Origin: Candidatus Micrarchaeia archaeon
Lineage (GTDB): Archaea; Micrarchaeota; Micrarchaeia; Anstonellales; J096
Direction of reading: 5' to 3'
DNA length: 27,076 nucleotides
Assembly: GCA_041500405.1 (NCBI GenBank)
Contig: JBGQMB010000012.1
Span: forward strand, 1 to 27,076
Every line of letters starts with the position of its first letter. Positions within the stretch are counted from its first letter, which is position 1. Positions 1 through 26,492 of this stretch are shown here, piece by piece. Under the pieces are notes generated by a model. It was not told where the DNA came from. It saw nothing but the letters and a program-made list of their open reading frames with translations, and ran no database searches. The position numbers and the translations under genes are program-made.

Positions 1-41
1 ATTGCCGCAAGCGCCGCTCCGGCAACAAGCATCCTTCCCAT
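1..41 (-). CDS. 5' end of a further paralog of the secreted TPR/transglutaminase-like family (runs off the window start)
   Basis: Nt 1-79 are identical to 1254-1332. The ATG at 41 gives MGRMLVAGAALAA, the same N-terminus as the 74..1294 gene. Confidence 0.75.
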   Translation of the reverse strand, partial: MGRMLVAGAALAA

Positions 42-79
42 GTTTCAGATTATGTACAAATGAGTATAAAAACCTATTC
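1..79. repeat. Leader repeat copy 1 (upstream gene stop + TATA + start of signal peptide)
   Basis: 79/79 identical to 1254-1332; may extend beyond the window edge. Confidence 0.95.
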
Positions 80-1294
80 GGGCTGGGCATCCCCTGCCGT
101 CAGGGCTTTGGCCTTCGCCCTGTCCGCGTCCGCCTCTTTTTCCATATCCAGCAGAAAATAGGCACGGGAGCGGCTAAGATAGTAATCCGGATCCCGAGGC
201 TCGAGTTTTATGGCTTTGCTGAAATCCTTGACTGCCCGCCGCAATTTCCTATAATAGACATCCAGCTGGTTTCCAAGGAGGTCAGAGTAACAACATAGGT
301 TATAGTAGCATTTTCCCCGCAGATAATACAAGTCAGCGGCAAGCGAGTCCATTTTTATGGCCTTGTCATAGTCCCTTAGTGCTAGCCAAGTTTTCCCCAG
401 CTTCTCATAAGCGTCCCCACGACAACAGTAACAAGTCGCGCACGGCAACAGGTCTATAGCTTTGTTGAAGTCCTTGACTGCCCGCCACAATTTCCACCTG
501 TTACAATATGAAGCTCCACGCTTCTCATATGCCATAAATAAAATCTTTTCAGGGTCTGATGTTATGGCTTCGATGATTGGATAATGATCGTGGACCTTTT
601 TCAGTGGGTAATACTCTCCGACTAGTATTTCAAAAAAGAAATTTTGCGTCTTGACAAGCTGATGCATCCAAACAACAACCATCTCCATCTTGATATGGAG
701 TTCTTTTGCCACATCAAAGACGACAAAACTGGAGGTAGTGCATTCAAACTTACCGGTTTTAATTGATTCGGACATGTAGCCAATGTAGTCCTCAATATAG
801 CCATTCGTATCGCAGCCCCAGTGTTTTTTGAAGTGCATGATGCTGTTTATGCCGGTTATGAACTTTTCCTCATCCATCTGGGCTTTTCTCCCCAGCAGGT
901 CCAGAAGACCGTCTAACACATTAGCATCAAGGCGACAAAGGTGTTTCCATAGAAATCCCCTGTACTCATGCCTCAGGATATATGAAACGTCAGAAACAAG
1001 CTCGTTGTATCTCCGTGCATAAGCGGCCGCCTGCTTTGGGGTATTCTCCAATTCAATCATAATCCTTCTGCTTCCTGCGGTTTCCTTGGTAATGTCGGAC
1101 TGTTTTGTGGGAACTTTTGCAAGCAAGGAGTCTATCCAAGGCGCTGTCTTTACTCTGATGCTGTCGGCCGCTGCCTTTTCCATCATCGTTTTCTCTGCCA
1201 GCGGCTGCGCAGTTATCCTTGGTTTTTTGTCGCAAGCCGGACTAATTGCCAGCATTGCCGCAAGCGCCGCTCCGGCAACAAGCATCCTTCCCAT
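74..1294 (-). CDS. Secreted/lipoprotein transglutaminase-like (SirB1/Transglut_core2-type) domain + TPR repeat protein
   Basis: Signal peptide with lipobox-like ISPAC. GKFECTTSS...VWMHQLVK...FFEI gives a Cys/His/Glu arrangement. C-terminal TPRs (AYEKRG..AVKDFNKAI, YYLSRSRAY). Confidence 0.75.
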   Translation of the reverse strand: MGRMLVAGAALAAMLAISPACDKKPRITAQPLAEKTMMEKAAADSIRVKTAPWIDSLLAKVPTKQSDITKETAGSRRIMIELENTPKQAAAYARRYNELVSDVSYILRHEYRGFLWKHLCRLDANVLDGLLDLLGRKAQMDEEKFITGINSIMHFKKHWGCDTNGYIEDYIGYMSESIKTGKFECTTSSFVVFDVAKELHIKMEMVVVWMHQLVKTQNFFFEILVGEYYPLKKVHDHYPIIEAITSDPEKILFMAYEKRGASYCNRWKLWRAVKDFNKAIDLLPCATCYCCRGDAYEKLGKTWLALRDYDKAIKMDSLAADLYYLRGKCYYNLCCYSDLLGNQLDVYYRKLRRAVKDFSKAIKLEPRDPDYYLSRSRAYFLLDMEKEADADRAKAKALTAGDAQPE

Positions 1295-1340
1295 GTTTCA
1301 GATTATGTACAAATGAGTATAAAAACCTATTCAGGCCGAG
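1254..1340. repeat. Leader repeat copy 2
   Basis: 1254-1332 is identical to 1-79. 1279-1340 matches 3458-3519 at 57/62. Contains TTTTTATA on the minus strand about 25 nt upstream of ATG 1294. Confidence 0.95.
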
Positions 1341-2098
1341 GACTCCTTTTGGCCGAGGATGCGCTTCGCCAATTCCTCTATCTCCGTGACGGTCTTGATG
1401 CCGCAGTTGCGGAACCTCCTGAGGCACATCCTGCGTTCCCTTTCGTCAGGGTTCTCCCTATAGAAGCGCCCGAGGTCAAGGATGCCCGGCGCATCGCTGC
1501 CTGTCGCCCAGCGCAGTATGTTGACTGCGCGCACGCTGGCCCCGAAATAGCACAGCGATGGGTTCTCGAATCCGTACTTGTGGCAGAACGACTCTATCTC
1601 GTGCTGGAGCGTCCCCTTTTCGGGGTAAAACCCAAGCCCCTGCATCCCCCTGCGCCATGCCAGCAGATCGTCGGCCGTCGGATACTTCTTTCCAGTGAGT
1701 TCCTGTGCCATCCCAAAAGCCATGGAATTCATGCCAAGCTCCTTGAGGCCGCGCAAGATTCCCATCCCGACTCCGAGCCCGATTACCTCTTTTTTGTGCA
1801 TGCATTTTTTCAGGCGCGCAGCGATCTCCGGGTTTGCCATGCCTTCTTTGAAATCATCAGGAATAGGCACCTTCTTGCCCGTATAGCGGCTGACTGCGCA
1901 GACTGCGCCGTATCCAAGCCCCATGGCGCCGAGCGTGCCGGGCGCGTTCCTTTTTTCGAACAAGTCAAGCGAGTCAAGCGCGAACTTGATGTTCTGGTGG
2001 CTCATGTCGTATTTCCTGGCTATGCCCCTTAGGCTCACGCCTTTTTTCCTCAGGCTGGCTATCTCCCTGTTGCGTTGCAGGCGCTGCTCGAAGTTCAT
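1331..2098 (-). CDS. HTH protein with RNA polymerase alpha-CTD-like (HhH) C-terminal domain
   Basis: N-terminal RNREIASLRKKGVSLRGIARKYDMSHQNI HTH. C-terminal SVRAVNILR...LRRFRNCGIKTVTEIEE resembles alpha-CTD. TATA-like TTTTTAAAT near 2120-2129. Confidence 0.6.
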   Translation of the reverse strand: MNFEQRLQRNREIASLRKKGVSLRGIARKYDMSHQNIKFALDSLDLFEKRNAPGTLGAMGLGYGAVCAVSRYTGKKVPIPDDFKEGMANPEIAARLKKCMHKKEVIGLGVGMGILRGLKELGMNSMAFGMAQELTGKKYPTADDLLAWRRGMQGLGFYPEKGTLQHEIESFCHKYGFENPSLCYFGASVRAVNILRWATGSDAPGILDLGRFYRENPDERERRMCLRRFRNCGIKTVTEIEELAKRILGQKESSA

Positions 2099-2139
2099 GT
2101 TGTAATTAGTGGAAGAAAGTATTTAAAAAGCATGGCTTC

Positions 2140-2225
2140 TTATGCAGAAAGGCCTGCCAGATACTCCATCTCCTCATCCGTCATATTGTAGAATATCTTC
2201 GCCTTCTCCGCATCCGACATCACCA
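2140..2225 (-). pseudogene. Orphan 3' end of the RFC large subunit gene (alternative allele)
   Basis: 70/86 nt identical, ungapped, to 3510-3595. Translates VMSDAEKAKIFYNMTDEEMEYLAGLSA* versus VMSDSEKAKIFYNMTDEEMEYLSGLST*. Confidence 0.92.
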
Positions 2226-3473
2226 CTCATCATTATCGTAGTATTCGTTTACTATGCTGCTGTCTGCCCTGTACTCCTCCATCATGCCCAGCTTTTTGTA
2301 TGCAAGTGCGCGGTTATTGTAGAAGGTTGCATCATCCGTTGAGCCCAGCTCTATCGCCTTGCTGTAATCCATTACCGCCAGCACATATTCCCCAAGATTG
2401 TAGTGCGCAACGCCGCGGCTGTTGAACAAATCGGCGTTCTTCGGTTCCAGTTCCACCTTCATCGCCTCGCCATAATCCCCGATCGCCAGCCTGTAATCGC
2501 CCAATTCGAGAAATTCGCTTCCGCGATTGCAATATGCATCCATGAGGAATCTGTTATCATGCTTGAAGCATGCGTTTGCGTGCTTCGTCATCCCCATTAT
2601 CGACAGGGTATAAAACAGGATTGCCTGATGATGCTGCCCGCATTTGGCAAGCTTCGCCCCCTTGCGCCAATAGATGTTTGCCAGGGCGACCTCAATGTCG
2701 GATGTCACGTCGTAGACAACCGGATACGTGTCATAAACGTAATCCAAGGTGTAATGGCATCCCGTTGTTGTCTCGAAACACAGGTTTCCCACCTTGGCGA
2801 ACTCATGCTCAGGGACCAAGACCAGCTCTGTCCAGATGCCGAGGGAATTTGCCACGTCAAATGCCAGGAATGCCGAACTGGCGCAATTGAACTTTCCGGT
2901 CCTGACGAGCGCGCCCATATCCGCTCCTTTTTCATAGCTCATTTCCAAATCGCGTGACATGATCCTCCATATGCCTTTCATGAATTTTTTTTCGCTTACT
3001 GCGTATGCCTTTTTTCTGTCTCCATACCTTTCCCTGATTGTCCCGGAGATGGCCGCAACAAGCCTGTTATATTCATGCGCATACGCGGCCGCGGTTTCGG
3101 CGGTATCCGCCTCTATCATTATCCTCTTGCTTCCGGCAATCCTAAAAGGGGCGATAGCGTCGCCGAGGCCCGCGGGATGTTCCCTCGAATACCATCTCGC
3201 CAAAAAGGATTTTATGGACGGGGCAACAGCAATGCCGGTTTTATCTGCCGCGGATGAATCTTGCGTATTGATGTTTGAATAATGCCATTTTGCAAAAAAG
3301 GAATCTATCTCGGACTTGGTAAAGGACGTGTCATCTTTCCCCATCGCGGAGTCCAGCATGGTCATTGGCCTTTCTTCCAACGGCTGCGCCCATATCTTGG
3401 GTTTCTTGTCAAAAGCCGGGCCTGCCGCAAGAATGGACGCGGCAAGCACACAGGTCGCAAGCATCCTTCCCAT
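2220..3473 (-). CDS. Secreted transglutaminase-like domain + TPR repeat protein (paralog of 74..1294)
   Basis: Signal peptide MGRMLATCVLAASILAAGPA. GKFNCASS...VPEHEFAK...FETT motif. TPRs (AYCNRG, LFNSRG, FYNNRA). Shares AGS(K/R)RIMIE with the paralog. Confidence 0.78.
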   Translation of the reverse strand: MGRMLATCVLAASILAAGPAFDKKPKIWAQPLEERPMTMLDSAMGKDDTSFTKSEIDSFFAKWHYSNINTQDSSAADKTGIAVAPSIKSFLARWYSREHPAGLGDAIAPFRIAGSKRIMIEADTAETAAAYAHEYNRLVAAISGTIRERYGDRKKAYAVSEKKFMKGIWRIMSRDLEMSYEKGADMGALVRTGKFNCASSAFLAFDVANSLGIWTELVLVPEHEFAKVGNLCFETTTGCHYTLDYVYDTYPVVYDVTSDIEVALANIYWRKGAKLAKCGQHHQAILFYTLSIMGMTKHANACFKHDNRFLMDAYCNRGSEFLELGDYRLAIGDYGEAMKVELEPKNADLFNSRGVAHYNLGEYVLAVMDYSKAIELGSTDDATFYNNRALAYKKLGMMEEYRADSSIVNEYYDNDEW

Positions 3474-3519
3474 GTTTTAGATTATGGACAAATGAGTATA
3501 AAAAGGTATTCAGGTCGAG
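3458..3519. repeat. Leader repeat copy 3, including the rfcL stop codon
   Basis: 57/62 identical to 1279-1340. Confidence 0.92.
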
Positions 3520-4679
3520 AGCCCGGACAGGTATTCCATCTCTTCGTCCGTCATATTGTAGAATATCTTCGCCTTTTCCGAATCAGACATGACCAGCTTC
3601 GCGTAAAGCGGCAGGAACGGAATCACCCTTTTGGAGGACGTGTGGACCCTTTTTCCAATCTTCAACGCAACGGACTTTGCCATCGCCCTTGCCATCATGG
3701 ACCTGCTCATCTCGACAAGGTAAAGCGGGAACTGGTAGTTCTCAACCGGCTTGTTGTACGCCTTTTTCTTGCTCAGGCCAACGCCGGCAGTCATAAGCGT
3801 GACGGAATATCTCATATAGCCGTAATACTGCCTCCTGAAAATCCTTCCGTCGAAAACATCGGCCCTTGAAAGCCAGTTGAACGCCTCCGCGATTTCCTCC
3901 GGCGTCTCGTACTCGCGCGCTATGTTCTCGTCCAGCCATAGCTTGAGCATGTCAGTATCCATATCCATGACTGAAGATGCGTAGCGCGCGCCTGAAAGCG
4001 TTGTGCACCTGAATATTGTCTTGAGAACGCTTTTGTCGTCTATTCTCCTGTCCCTTGGGCTGAACGACGCTGCCTCAAGGTCGTTGAGCGCGGAGCGCAG
4101 GTCCCCGGAACAGCCCTGGGATATCCTCATTATCGCTTCCTCGCCTGCGTCCAGCTTTTCCTTCTGCGACACCTCGCGGAGGAGATTTGCGACGTCGGAC
4201 GGCGCGATTTTCTTCATCTGGATTGCCTTGACGTACATCCTCAGCGGCTTTAGCTTCGGTTCGGACGTGTCGTTCGCGGTTATTATGACAGGCACGCTGG
4301 TTTCCTTTATCAGGTTGACAAGCTCGCCTATGCCGCCCCTGTCGTCCTTTGTCATCGCGTCCGCGTCATCAACAAGTATAATCCTTTTCCTTCCGAAAAC
4401 GGTCCTTGAGAAGAAGGCCGGCCTTATGTTTTTCTCAAGCGTCGCCCTGTCCCTCAGGCTGCTTGAGGATATCTCCAGCATCTCCAAACCAAAGTCCCTT
4501 GCAAGCGCGTACGCAAGGCTTGTCTTTCCCACGCCCGGAGGCCCGCCGACCATCAGGGGCTTTTCCCTTTTGCCGCTTAGGATGGCGCCCAGCCAGGCCT
4601 TGGCCGCTGCCTTGACCTCGTCGTTGCCTATCATCCCTGAAACGGATTTCGGCATGTACTTCCTTGTCAGCGGCACCAT
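3510..4679 (-). CDS. rfcL: Replication factor C large subunit
   Basis: PLTRKYMPKS, Walker A GPPGVGKTS, Walker B IILVDDAD, GDLRSALNDL, and C-terminal WLDENI..WLSRADVFDGRI. ATG at 4679 with TTTTAAAA at 4701-4708. Confidence 0.92.
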   Translation of the reverse strand: MVPLTRKYMPKSVSGMIGNDEVKAAAKAWLGAILSGKREKPLMVGGPPGVGKTSLAYALARDFGLEMLEISSSSLRDRATLEKNIRPAFFSRTVFGRKRIILVDDADAMTKDDRGGIGELVNLIKETSVPVIITANDTSEPKLKPLRMYVKAIQMKKIAPSDVANLLREVSQKEKLDAGEEAIMRISQGCSGDLRSALNDLEAASFSPRDRRIDDKSVLKTIFRCTTLSGARYASSVMDMDTDMLKLWLDENIAREYETPEEIAEAFNWLSRADVFDGRIFRRQYYGYMRYSVTLMTAGVGLSKKKAYNKPVENYQFPLYLVEMSRSMMARAMAKSVALKIGKRVHTSSKRVIPFLPLYAKLVMSDSEKAKIFYNMTDEEMEYLSGLST

Positions 4680-4788
4680 CAAGGCAGTATCAGCGGCATC
4701 TTTTAAAACATTGACGGGCGCGGCAACCCCAGTATCTCAGGCGGAATTTCACACACATTTAAAAACCCTTTTAGACACAAAAAAATCC

Positions 4789-5433
4789 ATGACATTCAAG
4801 GAAAGAAAGTATGCCATGGCAAGCGAACCCGGGTTCAAGAGGCAGGTCGGAGGCAGCAGGCTTAAGGCGGTAAAAAAGCCAAAGCCGGACGATTCAGAAA
4901 GCCCGCTGCAGGCGCAGATAAGGGTGCTGAAGGAAAAGGTCTTGGATTTATCAGGTTCGTCCACAGAAAAGGAGGCAAAGGCGATTTGTGCTGAGCTGGG
5001 CGACTTATATTCATTGGACAGGCGATTCCATCTTGCAGGCGTTTATTACAAAAAAGCCGGTGCGCTTGTCCCCGCAGGCAACGCGTTCATGGCAGCCAAG
5101 GAATATTTCTCCGCGGCAAGGTGCCTTGAAACCGCAGGCGAGAAAAAGCTGGCCAAAAAGGCGTATAAGCTGGCAGCTAGGCAGGAGATGAAGAGCTGCA
5201 ACTACGCTGTCGCGATTTGTGCCTACAGGAAGGCGGGCAAACTGAAAACGGCAAAGGCAATAGAGGATAAGATGCTGGAAAAGGCCGCATTGGCCAAGAA
5301 GCGCTTGGAAACAAAAAGAAAGAACGCGGTGCCGATAAGGCATCCGTCCCAGATGGGCGACCTTGAAAGGTATGAGTATGATAAAGCGATGAAGGGAGCG
5401 GCCAAGAAGGCAGCATCGAGGAAACAAAAATAA
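4789..5433 (+). CDS. Basic alpha-solenoid (TPR/SNAP-like) protein
   Basis: Start reassigned to ATG 4789 (TTTAAAA near 4758). Repeats AGVYYKKAG, AARCLETAG, AICAYRKAG. Confidence 0.65.
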   Translation: MTFKERKYAMASEPGFKRQVGGSRLKAVKKPKPDDSESPLQAQIRVLKEKVLDLSGSSTEKEAKAICAELGDLYSLDRRFHLAGVYYKKAGALVPAGNAFMAAKEYFSAARCLETAGEKKLAKKAYKLAARQEMKSCNYAVAICAYRKAGKLKTAKAIEDKMLEKAALAKKRLETKRKNAVPIRHPSQMGDLERYEYDKAMKGAAKKAASRKQK

Positions 5434-5449
5434 TTGCGGTGAGTATATT

Positions 5450-6841
5450 ATGGCGGAAACCCTTGAAAGGACAATAGGCAAGTGCAAAGGCAAGCCCGGA
5501 TACAGCGGAATGGGCAGGCCAACCAATGCCTTCAGGGAAAAACACAAGGGGACAATAAGAAGATCCATCGCAACGGTTGCGGAAAAATTCAAGGACGCGC
5601 AAGGCGGCGCCCCTGAAACAGGGCCCGGTGCCAAGTACGAGGAGGGCATTCTCATCAGGAACGGCCTGAAGATAAAGCCGCCCGGAGTGAAATGGGGCGT
5701 ATTGATACCAGAATGGGCAGGGCATAGGGGCCCGCCCACGCACGAGCTGCGCATCAAGCACGGGTTTGCTGAGCCAGCCAAAGAATTCAGCTGGAGCGAT
5801 ATCATACCTGAATACAAGGGAGAAGGTATGCCTTCAGATGAAGTGCTTTTGGAGCACAATCTTGCTAGGAAAACAGAATCAGGCGCCATAATAAAGATAA
5901 AGCCAAAAGGCGCAAAATGGGGAGACGTCATAGAGGAGCACCGTGGAAAGAAAGGCCCAGCTCCGCTTGGGCTGCGCATCAAGCACGGCTTTGCAGAGCC
6001 AAGGCCAGAAAAGGAAAAGGCCGAAAAGGAGCCAAAGCCGAAAAAATTCAGCTGGAAAAACATCCCGGAATACACCGGAAGGGGACTGCCGTCAGACCCC
6101 ATACTTGAGAGATATGGGCTCCCGACAAGGAGCCAGCGCGCGGAGATGGCGCAAAAAGCAGATGCGCCAAACAATGATACAAAAGTAATGGCCAGGGCCG
6201 ACGGGCTGAAGATAAAGCCAAAGGGCGTCAAATGGGGAGAGGTCATTTCAGAATGGAAAGGCAGGATGGGCCCGCCAACCAGGGCGCTGCTTGAAAAATA
6301 CGGGTTCGCGCCGCTTTCCACATGGAAGGAGCCAAAGAAGAAAGCGCCAAAGCAGGAAAACGCGTACATGAACAAACAGTTCAGGAAAAATCTGATCGAG
6401 GACGGCCCGGTGGTAGAGCCGCCGGATGAAAATGAGCAGGACGAGATTGAGGCGTTGCTGCCGGAGGAGAAGCCCGTTGAAAAAAGGGCGACCGCACGCA
6501 ATGCGGCTGCCGCGCGCCCGGCAAGGCGCGAAAGGGTAGAGGAAACCCAGGCTTTCATTAGCACAGATTCTGAAAGAAGGGCTTTCGACGCCAAGATGGA
6601 AAGGCTCAGGATAGGGGTCGAAACCCTTGAGGGGACCGGAAGGCCCGAGGAGGCGAAAAAGGCGTGGGCGGAAATAGCGGACATATACCGGTCAAAGGGG
6701 CTGAATCTGCTGGCAGGCGCCTATTTCAAAAAGGCCGGCGAATACAAAAAGGCCGCGCAGGCGTTCAACGCCTGCGGCGAATACGACAAGGCCAAGCTTT
6801 GCCGCGAAAAGGCAAATGAAACGAGGCGCGGGGCAACATGA
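5450..6841 (+). CDS. Protein with five or six novel W..E[WYH]xG..P repeats and a C-terminal TPR/SNAP-like solenoid
   Basis: Three KIKPxGxKWG..HGFAEP-type units alternate with two FSW..IPEYxGxGxPSD units. C-terminal AGAYFKKAGEYKKAAQAF. Confidence 0.7.
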   Translation: MAETLERTIGKCKGKPGYSGMGRPTNAFREKHKGTIRRSIATVAEKFKDAQGGAPETGPGAKYEEGILIRNGLKIKPPGVKWGVLIPEWAGHRGPPTHELRIKHGFAEPAKEFSWSDIIPEYKGEGMPSDEVLLEHNLARKTESGAIIKIKPKGAKWGDVIEEHRGKKGPAPLGLRIKHGFAEPRPEKEKAEKEPKPKKFSWKNIPEYTGRGLPSDPILERYGLPTRSQRAEMAQKADAPNNDTKVMARADGLKIKPKGVKWGEVISEWKGRMGPPTRALLEKYGFAPLSTWKEPKKKAPKQENAYMNKQFRKNLIEDGPVVEPPDENEQDEIEALLPEEKPVEKRATARNAAAARPARRERVEETQAFISTDSERRAFDAKMERLRIGVETLEGTGRPEEAKKAWAEIADIYRSKGLNLLAGAYFKKAGEYKKAAQAFNACGEYDKAKLCREKANETRRGAT

Positions 6842-7491
6842 AAAACAAAACGGCGAAACCAAAACTGCATTCCAGGAAGTTTGCGGTGACTCGCGGCAGG
6901 AAAGCAAAGGATATCATGCCAGACCCTATTCTTGACGAGAATCTTCTTTTAGGGAGCCAGAATCTTGCGAACGGCGAAATCGAAAGCAAAATAAGGAAAA
7001 TCCTCGAGGACGACGAGCCTTCGTTGCCGGACATTCCGAAAATAGCTTCCGCTTCATACAGCGCGTTGCTGATAAAGAAGGCGCTTGACAAGAAGTTCAC
7101 ATCGGAAAGGCAGAGGGGCGAGCTCCGCAAGGCCCTGAAGAAAAATTATGAGCAAGCCAAAAGCCAGAAAGGCATAGAAAACGACGACACGTGGCTGCAG
7201 GTCGCGATTGCGGTGGAGGACTATGCGACCGCGGCGGAGATATGCCTGAAGCTCAACAGGTTCTGTGATGCCGAGCAATACCTTGAAAAGTCCGGCATGG
7301 AGCCAGCAGACGCCTGCCGCATGCTTGGGGAATTCTGCATGTCAAAGGGCTTTTACACGTATGCCGCATCCTTTTTCAGGAAGTCCGGCGACAAGGACAA
7401 GGAAGTCTCTGCCAAGACCATGAAAACCTATTCTCCGGCCATTACAGACATGTTAATGGAAGTCGAACCGTTAAAGGAAGACGAACCCTAA
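6838..7491 (+). CDS. Alpha-solenoid (TPR/SNAP-like) protein
   Basis: ATGA overlap with the upstream gene. Motifs AEQYLEKSG and AASFFRKSG. Confidence 0.65.
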   Translation: MKNKTAKPKLHSRKFAVTRGRKAKDIMPDPILDENLLLGSQNLANGEIESKIRKILEDDEPSLPDIPKIASASYSALLIKKALDKKFTSERQRGELRKALKKNYEQAKSQKGIENDDTWLQVAIAVEDYATAAEICLKLNRFCDAEQYLEKSGMEPADACRMLGEFCMSKGFYTYAASFFRKSGDKDKEVSAKTMKTYSPAITDMLMEVEPLKEDEP

Positions 7492-8093
7492 TTTCTGACC
7501 CTTATTGTCAGGACAAGCGCAAGGACAAGCAGTGCAAGCGCGGCCCTTGCGGAATCCTGGCCAAGCATGCCCAGGACGAACATCGCAGTCGGAACGCAAA
7601 GCAGCACGGTTATGATGTCCCAGGCCGCGTTCTCAGTCTTTATCCTTCCACAGAACCTTTTGCCAAACGGGAAGAGCGGCGCAACCCCGGACGGCGTCAT
7701 CGCGTCCTCAAGCAGATGGAGCATGTAACCAATGAACAGCCATGTTGCATACCAGTAATTGAGATTCGCTATGAAAAGCAGCGCGCCGACCAGCGCGGAC
7801 AGCAATGCGCCTGCGATGACGGTGTGCGCAAAGCCGCGGTGCCCGCCCATGTTTTTCCCTGCAACCAGCGAGAATATCCTTGAAAGCGGCCAGTTGAAGG
7901 CAAGGCCAAGAAACGAAAGCACGCGCGAAACGCCATTCTTCTTCCCTGAGACCGGGTTGCAGTCCGAAATGTCCATATCAGGAAGAATTGAGCCAAGGAC
8001 AGCGAAAAGGACTGCAAGGATCCATCCCTGCGAAGGAAATGCAAAAGGAAAAACTATGGCGAAAGTAGCCATCGCGTGCTGTCTCAGCATCAT
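7488..8093 (-). CDS. Membrane-bound metal-dependent hydrolase (YdjM/DUF457-like)
   Basis: H..GSILPDMD, HRGFAHT, GYMLHLLEDAMTPSGVAPLFPF motifs; multiple TM segments. Confidence 0.88.
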   Translation of the reverse strand: MMLRQHAMATFAIVFPFAFPSQGWILAVLFAVLGSILPDMDISDCNPVSGKKNGVSRVLSFLGLAFNWPLSRIFSLVAGKNMGGHRGFAHTVIAGALLSALVGALLFIANLNYWYATWLFIGYMLHLLEDAMTPSGVAPLFPFGKRFCGRIKTENAAWDIITVLLCVPTAMFVLGMLGQDSARAALALLVLALVLTIRVRN

Positions 8094-10894: not shown

Positions 10895-11800
10895 ATGCAA
10901 CTTGTAACAGGCGGAGCGGGCTTCATAGGCTCGCACATCGTTGATATCCTCAACCCAAAGGACACTGTAATACTAGATGACTTTTCCAACGGAAAAATGG
11001 AGAATATAAACAGCGCAGTCTCCAACGGCGCAAAGCTCATGGAGATGGACATCGCGGACATAACGCCGGAGACGCTGGAGGATATTGACGTCATTTTCCA
11101 CCAGGCCGCGCTTGTTTCAGTCCCGCTAAGCTTCCAGCAGTTCGAGAAAACGTACAAGGACAACGTCGCGTCATTCCTCAACCTTTTGGAGTGCGCAAGG
11201 CAATCCGACGTCGAAAGAATAGTGTTCGCAAGCTCGGCGGCGGTTTACGGCGAAAGCGGGGAGCCGCTCAGGGAAGATGCCAAGCTGTTCCCGAAAAGCC
11301 CGTATGCGGAAAGCAAGGTCATGGATGAGCTTTATGCAAGGATTTACGCAAAGGAATACGGCATGAAGATAATCCCATTGAGGTATTTCAACGTCTACGG
11401 GCCAAGGCAGGACCCGTCCAGCCCGTATTCGGGCGTCATATCGCTATTCGCATCCAATATGAAAAAGAATGAACCAATAACGGTTTATGGGGACGGAAAC
11501 CAGACAAGGGACTTTGTGTTTGTCAAGGACGTGGCAGAGGCGAACCTGATTGCGTCAAAGATGAAGCGCAACTTCGCAGAGCCGATAAACATAGCGTCCG
11601 GAAAAGGGACCACGATAATGGGGCTTTTCAGGATTTTGTGCGACATAACAGGCTATTTCAAGGAGCCGGAGTTCGCGGCTTCGAGGGAGGGCGACGTGAA
11701 GTTCAGCGTGGCGGACATTGAAAAGGCAAAGGAAATAATGGACTTCTCGGCTGAAAGGACGCTTGAAAGCGGGCTGAAAGAGACGCTGGAATCGGCCTAA
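10895..11800 (+). CDS. NAD-dependent epimerase/dehydratase (UDP-glucose 4-epimerase-like extended SDR)
   Basis: GGAGFIGSH, SSAAVYG, YAESK (YxxxK), LRYFNVYGPRQ, GDGNQTRDFVFV. Confidence 0.93.
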   Translation: MQLVTGGAGFIGSHIVDILNPKDTVILDDFSNGKMENINSAVSNGAKLMEMDIADITPETLEDIDVIFHQAALVSVPLSFQQFEKTYKDNVASFLNLLECARQSDVERIVFASSAAVYGESGEPLREDAKLFPKSPYAESKVMDELYARIYAKEYGMKIIPLRYFNVYGPRQDPSSPYSGVISLFASNMKKNEPITVYGDGNQTRDFVFVKDVAEANLIASKMKRNFAEPINIASGKGTTIMGLFRILCDITGYFKEPEFAASREGDVKFSVADIEKAKEIMDFSAERTLESGLKETLESA

Positions 11801-17555: not shown

Positions 17556-18157
17556 TGCACCATTCTCGCGTCTATGACTACGCAATCGTTCTCGTCAACC
17601 TTTATGGGGTTGAGGTCAAGCTCCTTTATCCTTTCCCTTCTTATCATTTTGCTGACCTTCACTATCAGCGAGGCTAGCTTCTTGATGTTGACCGGCTTTC
17701 CCCTGAACCCGAGCATTATTTTCTTTGCTTTGACGTCGTCAATCATGTCGTAGACGTCCTTTTCGGTTATGGGGCAGATCCTTGCGGTTATGTCCTTGAA
17801 CACCTCGACATATATTCCGCCTATTCCGAAAAGCACCATCGGGCCGAAGACCTCGTCGTCCATCGCGCCGACATAAAGCTCCAATCCTTTTTTAATTTGC
17901 TTCTGCACAAGCACGCTTGTCTCCTTTCCGAACCTTGACTTCAAATGGTCGAAGCCTGTTTCAAGCATCTCCTTTGTCCAGTTGTCAAGAACGACGCCGC
18001 CGACGTCGGTCTTGTGGATTATCTTCTTGGTCCAGGCCTTGAGCACAAGCGGATAGCCTATCTTCTCCGCTGCCCTGAAAAGCTGGGCCTTTGTGTCCAC
18101 GATTTCATAAGGGGCGACAGGTATGCCGTTCCTTTCAAGGATTTCAAAAACGTCCAT
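17552..18157 (-). CDS. acdB: ADP-forming acetate/acyl-CoA ligase beta subunit (ATP-grasp)
   Basis: IGYPLVLK..IIHKTDVGGV, FGPMVLFGIGGIYVEVFKD, IKELDLNP, VIDARM. Confidence 0.9.
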   Translation of the reverse strand: MDVFEILERNGIPVAPYEIVDTKAQLFRAAEKIGYPLVLKAWTKKIIHKTDVGGVVLDNWTKEMLETGFDHLKSRFGKETSVLVQKQIKKGLELYVGAMDDEVFGPMVLFGIGGIYVEVFKDITARICPITEKDVYDMIDDVKAKKIMLGFRGKPVNIKKLASLIVKVSKMIRRERIKELDLNPIKVDENDCVVIDARMVH

Positions 18158-18247
18158 AAGGCAGTATCGCAGGCAGGTATTAAAATGATAACGGCATTGT
18201 CCGCCGTGCCAATAGCATTTTTAACCTCTTTTATTCACAATAAGCCC

Positions 18248-18967
18248 ATGCGGCTTATGGAAAGGAAGCCAATAAGGGAAATGCGCATCAGGCTCAAGGC
18301 ATTGTTCAGCCGCAGCAAGGCGCGCTTTGAGAAAAACGGGGCTGCCCAGGGGCATCTTGACCTCAAGCTTTTCAATGAATGCAAGGTCGCGCAGCAGGAG
18401 GACGCCAGGGCCAAGGAGGTCAGGCGACTGCTGAAGCAGGGCGCAAACCCGGACGTATCGCTCAACTGGGACGGCGTTTCTGCGCTTGCGCACGCTGCGC
18501 AGAACGAGTCCTGCAAAATCGCCAAATTATTGCTTAAGGCCGGCGCAAACCCGAACGCAAGGGACAAGAATGGATGCACGCCGCTCATGCATGCAACAAA
18601 ATACGTAAATGAGACTGCGACAGCAAAGATTCTCCTTGAATATGGCGCAGACCCGAACGCAAGGGACAACAACGGATGGACGCCGCTCATGTACGCGGCG
18701 TCCAAGGGCGGCCCGGAACTTGCGAGGCTCCTGCTTGAGCGCGGCGCATTCATGACCGCAACAAGCAGAAAGGGCAACACCGCGCTGATGCACCTTGAGA
18801 AAAGGCACGCGAAATGCACGCTCCCCCTTGGCGGATATGGGGATCAGGAAATCTATGACGGCATAATCAAAGTTTTCAATGAGCACAGGGCAAGGACGCT
18901 GAAACGCATCACTGGCTTTGCCTTCGCGAAATTCAAGTCAAATTTCAGGGAATGCGCGAGCCATTAG
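18248..18967 (+). CDS. Ankyrin repeat protein (Ank1)
   Basis: GANPNARDKNGCTPLMHA and GADPNARDNNGWTPLMYA. Start reassigned to ATG 18248 (or 18257) using the TATA near 18218. Confidence 0.88.
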   Translation: MRLMERKPIREMRIRLKALFSRSKARFEKNGAAQGHLDLKLFNECKVAQQEDARAKEVRRLLKQGANPDVSLNWDGVSALAHAAQNESCKIAKLLLKAGANPNARDKNGCTPLMHATKYVNETATAKILLEYGADPNARDNNGWTPLMYAASKGGPELARLLLERGAFMTATSRKGNTALMHLEKRHAKCTLPLGGYGDQEIYDGIIKVFNEHRARTLKRITGFAFAKFKSNFRECASH

Positions 18968-18999
18968 CATTTTTAAACACTTTTGCGCACAAATCCCCC

Positions 19000-20319
19000 A
19001 TGCAGGAAAAGCCGGTTTTAAGCAATGGCGCGCCCCAGGAGACGAGGAAGCCAGTGCCGGACAAGGAGGCCGCCCAGAGGGAGCTGGACTGCGGGCTTGT
19101 GGATGCAGTGATGGAAGGAAGCCTTGAAAAAACAAAAAGCCTGTTCAGCATGGGCGCAAGCATCGACGCCAAGGACTATTGGGGCAAGACCGCGCTAATG
19201 TGCGCCTGCCTTTATGGCCATGAAAAAGTCGCAGCGTTCCTTGTTGAAAACGGCGCAAGCATAAACGCGAAAGACAAGGGCGGTTGGACGCCGATGATGT
19301 TTGCAGCGCGCAATGGATTCACCAACGTTGTAGGGCTGCTGAGTGACAGGGGCGCGGACGTTGGTTCAAGAGACGAACGCGAGTACACCGCACTCATGCA
19401 CGCGATTGAGGAGGAGCGCATCGACACTGCAAGGCTGATGATCAGAAAGGGCGCCGACCCGAAAACGCAGATAAGGAACATCGGGAGCCTACTGCCCAAT
19501 GCCGCAAAAATGGGCATGTACAAAATCGTGAAGTTCGTTGTAGAGGAAGGCACTGACATCGACTCGCTTGACACTGATACGGTTGACGGCAAAGGCATCA
19601 CCGCGCTGGCCTATGCAATACACAAAAACGATTTTGGCATGGCCAAGTTCCTTTTGAAGCACGGCGCAAACATAGACAAGGCAGACCAGTATGACAGGAC
19701 ACCGCTGATGCGCGCAGTGGAACAAGGCGACGCAAAGGCAGTTTCCTTCATTTTGGAGAACGGCGCCGACCCGGACTTGGAGAGCAACATCGGAAAGACC
19801 GCGCTCATGATGGCGGCAAGGGACGGAAACCTTGAAATGGCCAAGCTGCTTGTGGAAAAAGGCGCATCCATTGAAATTGAATGCAAAAGCGCGCTGATCG
19901 AGGCGCTTGACAACAGGCATGACGACATCGCCAAATTCCTCATAATGAACGGCGCCAATGTAAATGCAAAGGACGGGTACGATGTCACCGCGCTGATGCA
20001 CGCCTTGGCAAACGGGAACATGGCAGAGGACAAATTTGAAATACTCATGCTCCTTGTGGACAAGGGCGCGGACATAGGCGCAAAGAATTCGAGAGGAATG
20101 GATATCATCGACCTGGCCATGAATTACGCCTCGTCCATCCCGCTGCCGTCCTCGGCACATTCCGCTGGTGCCACGATGTGGTTGAATGGCATAAAACAGA
20201 ATGCAATACGGCTTCAGAAGTTTCTTGAGATGGCCGGAGCATTCCAGCCCCTCATAGGCAAGGGGCCGCTGAGCGAGCTTGTGCTCAATTTCGCGGATTG
20301 CACCATGCAAAGAAAATAG
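19000..20319 (+). CDS. Ankyrin repeat protein (Ank2, about 10 repeats)
   Basis: Repeated GAxIxAKDxxGxTALM units. ATG 19000 with TATA near 18970. Confidence 0.9.
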   Translation: MQEKPVLSNGAPQETRKPVPDKEAAQRELDCGLVDAVMEGSLEKTKSLFSMGASIDAKDYWGKTALMCACLYGHEKVAAFLVENGASINAKDKGGWTPMMFAARNGFTNVVGLLSDRGADVGSRDEREYTALMHAIEEERIDTARLMIRKGADPKTQIRNIGSLLPNAAKMGMYKIVKFVVEEGTDIDSLDTDTVDGKGITALAYAIHKNDFGMAKFLLKHGANIDKADQYDRTPLMRAVEQGDAKAVSFILENGADPDLESNIGKTALMMAARDGNLEMAKLLVEKGASIEIECKSALIEALDNRHDDIAKFLIMNGANVNAKDGYDVTALMHALANGNMAEDKFEILMLLVDKGADIGAKNSRGMDIIDLAMNYASSIPLPSSAHSAGATMWLNGIKQNAIRLQKFLEMAGAFQPLIGKGPLSELVLNFADCTMQRK

Positions 20320-24186: not shown

Positions 24187-25934
24187 CCCAAGGAGTAGTA
24201 ATCCCCTTTTTCCCTTTGCTCCCTGTCCAGCACGCTGCCAGGCTTGTTTATCCTAGGGCGGAACGTATCAACGTCCCTTCTTACGGTTATATCCATTGCC
24301 TTGAGGAACAGGTCCATCCCCTCCCTCTTGTGCATGGCCTTGCTTCCATGGCCTTTTTTGGAGCGCTCCCCGGAAAACAGCATTATCCTGTTTGACACCC
24401 TGTCTATCAGGCTTATGTCGTGGTCTATTATGAAGACAGGCTTTTTCCTGTATTCAATGAAATCTGATATCAGATGGCAGAACGCTATCCTTTGCTCCAC
24501 GTCAAGGAACGCGCTCGGCTCGTCCAGGAGATACAAATCGGCTTCAAGCGACAGCGTGTGCGCTATGCTGACCTTTTGCAATTGTCCGCCGCTTAACTGG
24601 CTCAATTTCCGCTCAAGCAGGTTCGCAGGTATGCTCAGCAGCCGCCTTGAAAGCTCGATTATGAAAGGGTCGCCTTTTGCAAAAACGGATGATACTCTGT
24701 CTTCGTTTGCCTCAAGGTACTGCTTCTTGTATGCTATTTTCATCTTGTTGTCAAAGTCGCCTGCATCGGATTTTTCCACCCCGGCAAGCATCCGCATGAA
24801 CGTTGTTTTTCCAAGCGCATTTCCGCCGACTATGCCGACAACCTCCTTTTCCCTGATTTCGCTTGGTTCCACTTCCAGCTTGAACGGGCCGAAGTCCTTT
24901 TTCAATTCCGGATACTTGAAATATACGGCGGCTTTTTCCTCCTGCTGGCTGAATTTCGAGAACTTTATCTCAAAGTCCCTTATTTTCAGGTTCTCCGCCC
25001 TCAAAAATCCCTGCAAATACTCGTTTATGCCGGTCCTTGAGGCCTTGAGGCCGCTCACTGCGCCGTATGCGCCCTCCTCGCCGAAGAAAATATATGCGTA
25101 ATCCACAAGGTAGTCCATAACGGTCAAGTCGTGGTCAACAACTATCAAAGTGTTCTTCTCCCCGAACTCCTTCAGCATCACGGATAATCTTAGCCTTTCG
25201 CCTATGTCAAGGTAGTTTGTAAGTTCGTCTATATAATAGATGTCCGCGTTTTTGCTTATGGTTATTGCAACGCTCAATTTCTGCAGTTCCCCGCCGCTCA
25301 GCTCGTTAACTTTTCTCTCGGCTATGTCTTCAAGCCCGAATTTCTCCAGCATATCCTTTCCAAGGCCAACGGCCTTCAAAAGCTCCTTGACATGGACCTT
25401 TTTCTTCCTTATGTTCTCTATATCCTGCGGCTTTATGGAAACGTTGTGTTCGCCTGCTATGGATGAAAGATAATTCTTAACTTCCATCGAGGACTTTTCA
25501 TATATCTCGTCCCAGGAGAATTCCCTCTCTTCGCCAAAATTGGGCTTGAGCTGCTTTGACAAAAGCCTTATTGCGGTCGTTTTTCCTATGCCGTTCTTGC
25601 CTATCAGGCCTATGACCTCGCCCTTTTTCGGTATTGGCAGTCCGTAAAGCCTGAACATGTTCGGCCCGTACGAGAACATCGGCGCCCCGAGCTCCTTCGA
25701 AAGGTTTATGATGTAGATGGCGCCGTTCGGGCATTTTTTCACGCATATGCCGCAGCCTATGCACCTCTCGTTGTTTATGAGCGGATACTTGCTTTCCTCA
25801 TCTATCTCTATGCACTTGTCCCTTGTCCTGTTGATGGGGCATACCTTGACGCACACGTAGCCGCACTTCTCCTTTGTGCAGGCGTCCCTGTCGATAATAG
25901 CCAGCCGCTTGGCCGCAACGCTAACCTTTGCCAT
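24183..25934 (-). CDS. rli: Ribosome recycling ATPase ABCE1/Rli1
   Basis: Two Fe-S motifs (C..KCGYVCVKVCP, CIGCGICVKKCP), two ABC domains (GKNGIGKTT, LSGGELQ, LSGGQLQ), RPRINKPGS.LDREQ tail. Confidence 0.96.
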   Translation of the reverse strand: MAKVSVAAKRLAIIDRDACTKEKCGYVCVKVCPINRTRDKCIEIDEESKYPLINNERCIGCGICVKKCPNGAIYIINLSKELGAPMFSYGPNMFRLYGLPIPKKGEVIGLIGKNGIGKTTAIRLLSKQLKPNFGEEREFSWDEIYEKSSMEVKNYLSSIAGEHNVSIKPQDIENIRKKKVHVKELLKAVGLGKDMLEKFGLEDIAERKVNELSGGELQKLSVAITISKNADIYYIDELTNYLDIGERLRLSVMLKEFGEKNTLIVVDHDLTVMDYLVDYAYIFFGEEGAYGAVSGLKASRTGINEYLQGFLRAENLKIRDFEIKFSKFSQQEEKAAVYFKYPELKKDFGPFKLEVEPSEIREKEVVGIVGGNALGKTTFMRMLAGVEKSDAGDFDNKMKIAYKKQYLEANEDRVSSVFAKGDPFIIELSRRLLSIPANLLERKLSQLSGGQLQKVSIAHTLSLEADLYLLDEPSAFLDVEQRIAFCHLISDFIEYRKKPVFIIDHDISLIDRVSNRIMLFSGERSKKGHGSKAMHKREGMDLFLKAMDITVRRDVDTFRPRINKPGSVLDREQREKGDYYSLG

Positions 25935-25990
25935 ATGGCACCTTGTTTTCCGGCACAGTTTTTAATTGCTTTGGCGCACAATCCATATTG

Positions 25991-26461
25991 ATGGAAAAGA
26001 GGAAAGGCAGGATACGCGAGGCGCTTGCAAAGGCCAAGGAAAGACTATTCCACAAGCCGAAGCCGGATATGAAAGCGATACTGACAGAAGATCATCAGAA
26101 TTGGCTCAATTATATGCTCTGGAAAGCCGCAGAAACAGGAAACAACTCGGAGATAGTACGGCTTATCAAGACCGGCATTGACATCGCCGTAAAAGACAAT
26201 AATGAGTGGACAGCCCTGCACTTTGCAGCATTATGTGGGCAAACCCAAACCTGCGCTATGCTTATCGTAGAATACGCAAAAACAGGAAGTGACATAAAGG
26301 AATTCATTACTGCAAAGAACAAAAAAGGCTGGAAACCCCTGGACTTTGCCGCAGAGAGAGGGCATCCCAAAGCCGAGCAGTTCCTCGAGTCCATGGAATG
26401 GCTTGCGGACGCGACGGGAAACGCGTTCATGAAGCCCTTCGGCGAATGCATTGCAGGATGA
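25991..26461 (+). CDS. Ankyrin repeat protein (Ank3)
   Basis: KDNNEWTALHFAA and KNKKGWKPLDFAA. Start reassigned to ATG 25991 (TATA near 25959). Confidence 0.85.
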   Translation: MEKRKGRIREALAKAKERLFHKPKPDMKAILTEDHQNWLNYMLWKAAETGNNSEIVRLIKTGIDIAVKDNNEWTALHFAALCGQTQTCAMLIVEYAKTGSDIKEFITAKNKKGWKPLDFAAERGHPKAEQFLESMEWLADATGNAFMKPFGECIAG

Positions 26462-26492
26462 CTTTTTAATCCCTTTGCCGCACAATGTCATT

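Follow-up and report, generated by a model that had tools for sequence, protein, structure and literature searches.

A displaced rfcL gene end in a small accessory-gene slot of a Candidatus Micrarchaeia archaeon

Homologous recombination with circular intermediates has been proposed for Rhs loci (Jackson et al. 2009, PMC2935791), while homology-facilitated illegitimate recombination (HFIR), with no integrase involved, has been proposed for sequential displacement at T6SS loci of Vibrio cholerae (Kirchberger et al. 2017, PMC5361080). Experiments have demonstrated HFIR in Acinetobacter, Streptococcus pneumoniae and Pseudomonas stutzeri (as cited in PMC5361080 and PMC2884548). It has been reported that the conserved segment of the Staphylococcus aureus lpl cluster is a site of homologous recombination that shuffles the variable parts (Tsuru and Kobayashi 2008, PMC2568036). 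A literature search by title or abstract start found no paper on HFIR in archaea. At the locus described here, from a tiny uncultured archaeon, a scar behind an essential replication gene suggests that DNA of a relative was inserted there without the enzyme of a mobile element.

The rfcL slot

The window, that is, the whole stretch of 27,076 nucleotides that was analysed, is one entire contig of a Candidatus Micrarchaeia (DPANN) MAG that is 86% complete. Its first 66 bases form an exact 66-nt overlap with the end of contig C26, to which the left end of the window is joined, and the resulting order is rfcL, TPR1, orphan rfcL tail, HTH gene, TPR2, TPR3, tRNA-Ser with intron and S13 operon. The features of the region are as follows.

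3510..4682, minus strand: rfcL, large subunit of replication factor C, 390 aa (Pfam domains: AAA and RFC1-5-like lid)
3433..3515, minus strand: leader A (repeat family D1, 76% identical to 1-83)
2220..3473, minus strand: TPR1, 417 aa (Pfam TPR_1, E = 1.5e-16)
2140..2229, minus strand: orphan rfcL 3' end, homology beginning at about 2229 (nucleotide repeat and protein match)
1331..2098, minus strand: HTH orphan gene, 255 aa (weak HTH_38 and HTH_35 matches, E of 2e-4 and 1e-3)
1254..1336, minus strand: leader B, copy 1, putative promoter with the start of the TPR2 coding sequence (copy of repeat D1, 99% identity with 1-83)
74..1294, minus strand: TPR2, 406 aa (Pfam TPR_11 and TPR_1)
1..83, minus strand: leader B, copy 2, putative promoter and start of TPR3 (repeat D1; the gene continues on C26)
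C26 12509..11346, running on from leader B, copy 2: TPR3 (70% protein identity to TPR2)

A repeat search of the window returned the repeats at the positions given in an earlier, sequence-only reading, and those downstream of rfcL are real and non-random. The slot now holds three tandem, lineage-restricted TPR genes with a signal-like N-terminus and one orphan HTH gene.

The slot is bounded on the left by rfcL, a conserved gene with an AAA+ module (PF00004, E = 7e-14) and an RFC lid (PF21960, E = 3e-8), which is kept as a single orthologue in relatives. It has a counterpart in 41 of 41 related genomes, with a nearly full-length best match, and is 84% identical to that of G001 and 67% identical to that of G002. 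In both of these relatives rfcL and S13 are neighbours. In G002, about 80 nt separate rfcL from S13, with no cargo; in G001, the order is rfcL, VIT1, two TPR-end relics, tRNA-Ser and S13; and a metagenome contig of a related lineage, L060, carries rfcL, VIT1 and then a leader. Beyond TPR3, C26 carries a relic of an older TPR gene end, an intron-containing tRNA-Ser(GGA) gene and the S13-S4-S11-rpoD operon. The cargo next to the anchor thus differs among three genomes of the genus and L060, with four genes in the slot here, VIT1 in one relative and none in another, and the interval from rfcL to tRNA-Ser(GGA)/S13 is best read as a slot that gains and loses accessory genes. The expectation that cargo near rfcL would be variable holds between species of the genus; within the species, the Logan contigs (4 runs from 4 studies) showed neither different cargo nor an empty site nor an excised form, a weak null since such contigs lose rare variants.

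The orphan rfcL 3' end

The 3' end of rfcL at 3517-3595 is repeated at 2147-2225 with 85% identity over 79 nt. When extended by eye, the match has the same base at 70 of 91 aligned positions, including an identical run of 29 nt, and at the protein level it corresponds to rfcL residues 361-389 (E = 1.9e-9). The full-length anchor thus has its 3' part repeated in truncated form downstream of the rfcL-proximal cargo, as the sequence-only reading had claimed, and the orphan of about 83 nt is a true displaced gene end. Its frame of 26 codons (2220..2143) is intact, opening with an ATG of its own that overlaps the stop of TPR1 (TGATG) and closing with TAA (2142-2140); the last codon and stop of TPR1 (2222-2220) lie within the orphan segment. 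The TGA stop of the resident rfcL (3512-3510) lies inside the 5' edge of leader A.

Within these 26 codons, which are the whole extent of the synonymous/non-synonymous test, the orphan and the resident tail differ by 11 synonymous and 3 non-synonymous changes (pS 0.73, pN 0.048, pN/pS 0.065), amounting to 11 of about 15 synonymous and 3 of about 63 non-synonymous sites (Fisher p = 5e-8), with 23 of the 26 residues kept. A null in which the resident changes only synonymously and the orphan decays neutrally gives p = 5e-4, and the inserted end accordingly has a coding history separate from that of the displaced one, as expected of an exogenous sequence. Because synonymous changes outnumber non-synonymous ones in this way, the comparison suggests that the two ends evolved within two functional rfcL genes; selection on the orphan ORF would be the alternative, and continuing selection on a small peptide could be a source of the low pN/pS. 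The almost purely synonymous divergence fits an rfcL-anchored recombination event with a diverged relative, while duplication in situ followed by decay fits it poorly. At outgroup-polarisable sites, read by eye, the orphan retains states shared with G001, L060 or G002, namely the TAA stop, Ala at codon 22 and CTT at codon 24. Over its last 30 codons, the resident rfcL shares 64% identity with G001, compared with about 80% over the remaining gene, and this equals its level with G002 (63%). A candidate match to the rfcL end in L060 was not significant (p of 0.04-0.14).

Several stacked rfcL relics had been proposed, of which one clear orphan tail was found; the second "relic" is a 13-nt stretch at the end of the HTH gene, whose last codons and stop (CTCGGCCTGAATA, 1340..1328) resemble the rfcL end (p_shuffle 0.001, leader edge included). 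The HTH gene has its own TATA-like element at about 2125-2118 and a codon-usage score of 0.41 in frame only, and the structure model of its product shows a confident three-helix N-terminus (residues ~10-40) with a poor remainder. The earlier designation "HTH/alpha-CTD gene" stands for the N-terminal HTH, by weak matches, but not for the alpha-CTD, since no such family is listed at E<=10, where just weak HTH_38, HTH_35, HTH_23, BRK and GerE matches occur. The searches returned no other homologue of the protein and no PDB relative, and neither the HTH gene nor the TPR cargo genes matched a PADLOC family.

A genome scan, a check put forward in the earlier reading, gave a second orphan gene end on C26, where the final 65-68 nt of a gene for an FtsX permease recur 1.8 kb downstream with 98.5% identity, the repeat ending exactly at the stop codon. 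Between the FtsX copies lies a pair matching PADLOC PDC-M19A/B, a candidate defence pair.

Leaders and the TPR family

The leader repeat unit is 83 nt. In leader A, a TATA box about 23 nt upstream of the ATG at 3473, predicted to form a promoter, is followed by the first codons of TPR1, which encode a signal-like N-terminus (MGRMLATC...). TPR1 consists of an N-domain without known family and C-terminal TPR repeats, has a codon-usage score of 0.34 in frame, and is 38% identical to TPR2 and TPR3 and 46% identical to P0002, a fourth member of the family. A search of a library of 5.8 billion proteins (E<=1e-3) for this lineage-restricted family returned 37 proteins, 2 of them full-length, one of which is TPR3. 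The "further TPR gene" noted at the left edge of the window is real, its body lying on C26. As the earlier reading also noted, each cargo stop codon (2222-2220, 1333-1331 and 76-74) falls within a repeated segment, the last being the TAG of TPR2 within the 5' edge of the next leader.

From the 5' end inward, the protein identity of TPR2 and TPR3 falls from 100 to 97, 92, 85 and then about 75%, and that of TPR1 and TPR2 is 92% in the first 60 columns of their alignment and about 50% thereafter. P0002 carries the N-terminal (coding) part of leader A, with 32 of 37 residues identical by manual count on the alignment, on a body just 46% identical to that of TPR1. The leader also follows VIT1 in the related lineage represented by L060. 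Because the N-termini are 92-100% alike compared with about 50-75% for the bodies, and P0002 has the leader-A N-terminus, the three leaders are best read as a module of the lineage-restricted TPR family, comprising a probable promoter and the first ~35 codons, and not as relics of rfcL junctions, as they had been taken to be. Repeated rfcL-anchored capture had likewise been invoked for TPR2 and TPR3; a simpler account is that these genes stem from a tandem duplication at the locus, after which gene conversion made their 5' ends alike again. A tandem array with a common leader (86 nt at 95%) was also observed on contig C16 of the same genome.

Origin of the slot and comparison with known systems

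The explanation that we consider about evenly poised is that the slot arose by growth of the TPR family together with one homology-anchored insertion from a diverged relative into rfcL, and the displacement reading proposed earlier is partly supported. The segment comprising the rfcL 3' end, leader A and TPR1 would have come from the diverged relative and been joined through rfcL homology, either by one-sided homologous recombination with an illegitimate far joint (HFIR) or as a small circle inserted by a single crossover via short rfcL homology. Both routes would displace the earlier rfcL end, leaving the orphan of about 83 nt ahead of the HTH gene. TPR2 and TPR3 would stem from local tandem duplication, their junction being a TPR gene end joined to a leader start, and the leaders would be kept alike by selection and gene conversion. 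A chronology with the newest cargo adjoining rfcL is plausible.

Most of the array can be accounted for by growth within the genome, with no donor, because the three TPR genes belong to one family of which one other full-length member was found. If such growth were the only process, unequal crossing-over or slippage would have multiplied the rfcL end, leader and TPR gene in nested tandem duplications, the HTH gene would have arrived or arisen later, and purifying selection would have preserved the orphan tail, for instance as a peptide of 26 residues whose translation is coupled to that of TPR1. We regard this as rather unlikely. It agrees with the paralogy of the three TPR genes in a family almost private to the lineage, with the TPR2|leader junction, which is the expected trace of a tandem duplication, with the common leaders of the array on C16, with the intact orphan ORF whose ATG overlaps the TPR1 stop, and with the lack of variation seen within the species. 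However, the near-saturated silent divergence (pS 0.73) with 23/26 residues kept requires both an old duplication and a selected peptide without known role; the orphan is no more derived than the rfcL end now in place, which is itself unusually distant from G001, and the HTH gene, which has no relative, is a duplicate of nothing.

A remnant of site-specific integration, in which an element or virus with an att site mimicking the rfcL 3' end would have integrated there, making the two rfcL ends attL and attR, with the integrase lost or acting in trans, appears improbable. Integrative elements that restore their target gene leave repeats of this look, ending exactly at the stop codon, and both the rfcL and the FtsX orphan copies stop there; in addition, the inserted DNA is flanked by direct repeats of a gene 3' end with a 29-nt identical core, and the slot is bordered at its far end by a tRNA gene. 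Against this, the rfcL repeats are just 1.3 kb apart and enclose a single gene of a resident family, no duplicate of a tRNA-Ser fragment was found, the HTH protein has no relative among phage records or viral contigs, and no tyrosine or serine recombinase was detected in the window, C26 or the rest of the MAG. Specifically, none of 42 ORFs (7 + 23 in the window, 12 on C26) belongs to an integrase or transposase family, and PF00589, PF16795 and PF00239 had no match in the whole 86%-complete MAG, while the controls matched 14, 3 and 12 of 14 reference genomes. This bears out the absence of such genes from the window as first read, and extends it leftwards to C26 and to the rest of the MAG; a recombinase could sit in the missing part of the MAG, or an element since lost could have supplied it. 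An integron or another site-specific cassette array was rejected, there being no recombinase family among the 42 ORFs or in the 86%-complete MAG, and none of 9 inverted-repeat pairs (1-6000) at cassette ends.

An assembly artefact, in which strain variants were collapsed or chained via the common leader into a stack absent from any one chromosome, is very hard to credit, although the window contig terminates within a repeat of 66 nt or longer and one X3 contig runs directly from the TPR2 5' end into the TPR3 body, with the TPR2 body on another contig, since independent runs gave contigs that bridge each of the junctions rfcL/TPR1, TPR1/orphan/HTH and HTH/leader/TPR2 without differences. The Logan contigs of other studies (4 runs, 4 studies) that cover these junctions include the following.

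1868-2289: independent Logan contig, X4 record 10
3259-3911: independent Logan contig, X4 record 13
543-4700: independent Logan contig, X3 record 4

X3 record 4 links the flank on the S13 side, together with the TPR3 body, to positions 1121-4700 of the window, the near-equal X3 depth of the TPR2 body (7.7) and TPR3 body (9.1) is that expected for two copies in one genome, and the join of the window to C26 is backed by the rfcL-to-S13 synteny of G001 and G002. TPR2 probably adjoins TPR3.

The preferred explanation, family growth plus one insertion anchored in rfcL, can be set beside the known systems. As in Rhs (PMC2935791), a full-length conserved gene is followed by truncated 3' sequence of its own in direct repeat, new DNA would enter beside the gene while the old end moves downstream, and no dedicated recombinase is involved. 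The displaced pieces of Rhs are alternative, non-homologous toxin tips in long arrays, whereas here there is one clear orphan, belonging to a housekeeping replication gene and encoding nearly the same peptide (23/26 residues identical), and the cargo consists of separate genes, so that the displaced piece is not an alternative functional C-terminal module with a cognate partner. The effector-immunity arrays of the V. cholerae T6SS (PMC5361080) are similarly ordered downstream of a conserved anchor, but that system is bacterial, competence-linked, carries selected immunity genes and is documented in many strains, while the present locus comes from one archaeal MAG, with no variation seen within the species. 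For HFIR, a one-sided anchor with an illegitimate far joint would yield a hybrid anchor gene, the cargo and the tail of the recipient's gene, which is the arrangement here; HFIR was shown by experiment in its hosts, whereas here DNA uptake and the donor are presumed.

The lpl cluster of S. aureus (PMC2568036) resembles the slot in its tandem paralogous surface-protein genes with a highly conserved segment, and the TPR genes form tandem paralogues of this type, with protein identities of 38-70% and leaders 92-100% alike against about 50-75% for the bodies. The conserved segment of lpl is central in the ORF, unlike the promoter and 5' end here, and its rearrangements between strains were not observed at this locus; a mosaic of segment and body is weakly supported by four sequences, in which the leader-A N-terminus occurs on two bodies 46% identical. 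Flexible genomic islands (Lopez-Perez et al. 2014, PMC4033161) also hold variable genes between core flanks, exchanged by recombination in the flanks, in contrast to which the rfcL slot, at 0 to about 5 kb, is very small and bears a visible scar of an illegitimate junction.

Anatomy and assembly of the array

The window is the complete 27,076-bp contig C12 of a metagenome-assembled genome of 916 kb (60 contigs, 86% complete), and the stack that it carries behind the gene for the replication factor C large subunit (rfcL) is real. The repeat layout described in the sequence-only reading was recovered by a repeat search of the window, which located copies of an 83-nt leader at 99% and 76% identity and a copy of the rfcL 3' end at 85% identity across 79 nt. 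Direct comparison of this displaced copy, hereafter the orphan, with the resident rfcL end gave 70 matches in 91 bases, including a 29-nt identical run, and the orphan peptide aligns to rfcL residues 361-389 (E=1.9e-9). The three stop codons that had been placed inside duplicated segments do all lie in repeats.

Features of the array behind rfcL
4682..3510, minus: rfcL, with AAA and RFC lid domains
3515..3433, minus: first 83-nt leader (leader A)
3473..2220, minus: TPR1
2229..2140, minus: orphan, a copy of the final ~80 nt of rfcL
2098..1331, minus: 255-codon ORF with a weak N-terminal helix-turn-helix (HTH)
1336..1254, minus: second leader
1294..74, minus: TPR2
83..1, minus: third leader, where contig C12 ends
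Contig C26, same strand: TPR3, then a remnant of an older TPR gene end, tRNA-Ser(GGA) and the S13-S4-S11-rpoD operon

The final 66 bases of C26, another contig of the same genome, match the first 66 bases of the window exactly, and this leftward extension adds the further TPR gene that had been expected, TPR3, whose protein is 70% identical to that of TPR2. The join of C12 and C26 is supported because S13 and S4 come after rfcL in the two other genomes of the genus (G001 and G002) and because a 7,985-nt contig from the independent sequencing run X3 connects the flank on the S13 side and the TPR3 body with window positions 1121-4700; S13 was absent from beside rfcL in all seven loci examined from other genera of the family. 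The X3 contig omits the TPR2 body, found instead on another contig at a comparable depth (7.7 vs 9.1), as is expected of a k=31 assembler at a tandem loop, and the adjacency of TPR2 and TPR3 is therefore deduced rather than read. A strain chimera is unlikely because the rfcL/TPR1, TPR1/orphan/HTH and HTH/leader/TPR2 junctions are spanned by contigs of runs X4 and X3; those of X4 show zero differences, and X3 record 4 differs almost exclusively in its TPR3-like part, below 1121.

Between the array and the S13 operon, at about 11095-11210 on the minus strand of C26 (L065), lies tRNA-Ser(GGA) with a ~29-nt insert in its T-loop. It was called by ARAGORN only after a T-loop intron of ~29 nt was excised in silico (69 of 1344 excision variants), and the unedited sequence gave no call with plain ARAGORN or Rfam (E<=0.01); the region is conserved in G001 at 93%. 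At about 11346-11300 of C26, TPR3 stops ~13 codons before an older stop, which persists in frame as a remnant with homology to the TPR2 end. Elsewhere in the window, three plus-strand ORFs without Pfam match (4003-5433, 5450-6841 and 6838-7491, together 4003-7491) lie upstream of and divergent from rfcL; their C-terminal helical-repeat motifs look alike to the eye, and within the middle one repeats recur at a spacing of 225 nt (families D4 and D7). Several ankyrin-repeat genes occupy 17945-20319 and 25928-27074, and the right end of the contig falls within one of them.

Leaders, TPR paralogues and the remaining cargo

In each leader a T-rich TATA element lies ~23 nt ahead of the ATG, and the short encoded N-terminus is basic at first and then hydrophobic, features that we read from the sequence as a putative promoter and signal peptide. 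The proposal that the leaders are rfcL junction relics fails, since they belong to the TPR genes: in the related metagenome contig L060, whose rfcL is 83% identical, a leader with an identical 5' edge sits behind the gene VIT1 and not behind rfcL. Over the first 60 columns of their alignment TPR1 and TPR2 share 92% identity, and about 50% thereafter; identity between TPR2 and TPR3 runs along the protein as 100, 97, 92 and 85%, then about 75%. A search of a library of 5.8 billion proteins returned 37 proteins at E<=1e-3, two of them with full-length coverage, namely TPR3 itself and P0002, the only other full-length member of the family found there; P0002 is 46% identical to TPR1 overall and matches it at 32 of 37 N-terminal residues (counted by eye on the alignment). 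This pattern fits a conserved expression and export module, homogenised or exchanged among paralogues. In addition, the TPR2/leader junction is placed one to two codons ahead of the older stop that survives behind TPR3, exactly as a local tandem duplication would leave it.

No TPR-family relatives were found in GTDB genome contigs, and the N-terminal domain was not found in 18 other genomes of the family, where the generic TPR part was the sole match. A search of the family genomes with the leader pattern gave, outside the genome under study, matches with 2 mismatches, which is the level of the reversed control. On contig C16 of the same genome, two plus-strand genes share an 86-nt segment at 95% identity (4649-4734 and 7915-8000), made up of a TATA-like element and first codons, which is another leader-type repeat.

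All three TPR proteins have confident C-terminal TPR repeats, and with their signal-like N-termini they probably take part in cell-surface interactions. Their N-terminal domain has no Pfam match, and PDB sequence matches were confined to the TPR part; the TPR2 model has pLDDT <50 across residues 1-247, too poor for a fold search, and a transglutaminase-like assignment was set aside with an Atlas cluster score of 0.84, below trust level. The HTH ORF shows native-like codon usage (0.41) in no frame but its own, and its model shows a confident three-helix N-terminus with a mean pLDDT of 47.8, too poor for a fold search. No relatives were found in the protein library, phage records or viral contigs, nor in the 18 other family genomes save a weak match in G002 (E 6.8e-6, 80 residues), and the alpha-CTD label first given to this gene found no support in the family search. 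The cargo, TPR proteins and a DNA-binding protein, is otherwise ordinary.

The displaced rfcL end and gene gain

The orphan needs an explanation other than leader homogenisation or local tandem duplication. Over 26 codons it differs from the resident end by 11 synonymous and 3 non-synonymous changes (S4A, S22A, T26A), that is, pS 0.73, pN 0.048 and pN/pS 0.065 (Fisher p=5e-8); against a null in which the resident changes silently only and the orphan decays neutrally, p=5e-4. Because the changes are almost all synonymous, the comparison indicates that almost all divergence between the ends built up while each was part of a functional rfcL. Alternatively, the orphan may persist as a selected 26-residue peptide, its ATG overlapping the TPR1 stop. 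Where polarisable, the orphan shares outgroup states (G001, L060 or G002), as read by eye at the TAA stop, Ala22 and CTT24. Meanwhile, the final 30 codons of the resident rfcL are 64% identical to G001 and 63% to G002, compared with about 80% to G001 for the remainder of the gene; sliding windows gave no clear mosaic breakpoint inside rfcL, with the final 30 codons alone unusually diverged.

Divergence inside two working rfcL genes is most simply accounted for if a segment comprising an rfcL end, leader A and TPR1 arrived from a diverged relative and joined through homology in rfcL, whereby the earlier rfcL end would have been pushed downstream to where it now precedes the HTH gene. Such a segment could have entered by homology-facilitated illegitimate recombination (HFIR), or as a circle inserted by single crossover through short rfcL homology. 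A second, short trace may be seen in the terminal 13 nt of the HTH gene, which match the rfcL end and leader edge (p_shuffle 0.001); a fourth TTTTATAC lies in the window at 2615. A candidate rfcL-end relic before the L060 leader was not significant (p 0.04-0.14).

The absence of an integrase or transposase, first remarked for the window, extends further: none of these families was found in the 42 ORFs of C12 and C26, and tyrosine (PF00589, PF16795), serine (PF00239) and Xer-type recombinases had no match anywhere in the 86%-complete genome, while PF00589, PF16795 and PF00239 were matched in 14, 3 and 12 of 14 archaeal reference genomes, respectively. Contig C2 carries one TnpB-like ORF. A tRNA attachment scar was also considered and rejected, there being no partial or duplicated tRNA-Ser copy in C12 or C26.

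The suggested scan for orphan gene ends, made by comparing the genome with itself and keeping isolated short repeats (35 pairs), yielded one further case like rfcL. On C26, the 3'-terminal 65-68 nt of a gene for an FtsX-type permease are duplicated 1.8 kb downstream (378-444 and 2161-2228, 98.5% identity), and the repeated segment terminates exactly at the stop codon. The two genes between the copies match PDC-M19A (E=3e-69) and PDC-M19B (E=2e-40), a candidate defence pair in PADLOC; downstream of FtsX, G001 and G002 yielded neither these genes nor the one past the orphan copy. A 43-nt repeat on contig C54 (L071; 532-574 and 2191-2233, 97.7%), consisting of a gene end and a TATA-like element, lies on both sides of an ABC-like fragment and NIF3, two genes on the opposite strand; it was not counted as a clean orphan end, given that its cargo includes the housekeeping NIF3 and that the contig is only 3 kb (44% G+C).

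Variation of the slot and comparison with known systems

The slot between rfcL and S13 differs in every lineage sampled. In G002, rfcL is followed by about 80 nt and then S13; in G001, by VIT1, two copies of an 18-nt relic of a TPR gene end, tRNA-Ser and S13; and in L060, by VIT1 and then a leader. The homology between G001 and the present genome on the S13 side begins exactly at the 18-nt relic (248 nt, 93%), and the pairing of relics suggests that TPR genes were deleted in G001. These relics (2118-2135 and 2395-2412 of the G001 contig L037) lie directly behind VIT1, their starts separated by about 280 nt. VIT1 was not found in the present genome (86% complete). The locus is thus a gain-and-loss slot at the genus level. 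The window stretch is present in five runs from five studies, and the contigs of four runs, which drop rare variants, contained no other arrangement and no excised or empty form. The predicted variability of the cargo behind rfcL thus holds between lineages of the genus; the single arrangement in four runs of the species says little, given that contigs lose rare variants.

The stack is best interpreted as paralogues arrayed in a variable slot, with a record of one or more homology-anchored insertions from a relative, rather than as the pure series of rfcL-anchored captures first proposed. A wider reading is tentative and, in our judgement, somewhat improbable: in this archaeon, in which no site-specific recombinase was detected, accessory genes would be repeatedly spliced directly behind the stop codons of conserved genes, anchored by homology through host recombination, each event leaving an in-frame orphan end, with scars at rfcL and at FtsX (candidate defence cargo). 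The same route to new genes would be general among small-genome archaea without mobile-element enzymes. Such splicing could proceed by HFIR or through small circles excised and re-inserted through the duplicated gene end.

Little is known of how DPANN archaea with very small genomes acquire genes. In the present case, silent-site divergence in the displaced end of an essential gene indicates that two rfcL lineages met in one chromosome, an encounter recorded in a genome with no detected integrase or resolvase. If the scar is common, orphan 3' ends and their pN/pS against the resident copy would make it simple to test uncultured archaea for gene gain without recombinases. No paper on such a scar was seen, by title or start of abstract, among the best literature matches for HFIR with archaea or DPANN.

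The scar is of the sequential displacement or HFIR kind, known elsewhere; in this DPANN archaeon the gene that bears it is a housekeeping gene. HFIR has been proposed for T6SS arrays of V. cholerae (PMC5361080), and insertion of a circle by single crossover through short homology for Rhs tips (PMC2935791). For the homogenisation or exchange of the leader among the TPR paralogues, a parallel has been described in the lpl lipoprotein cluster of S. aureus (PMC2568036).
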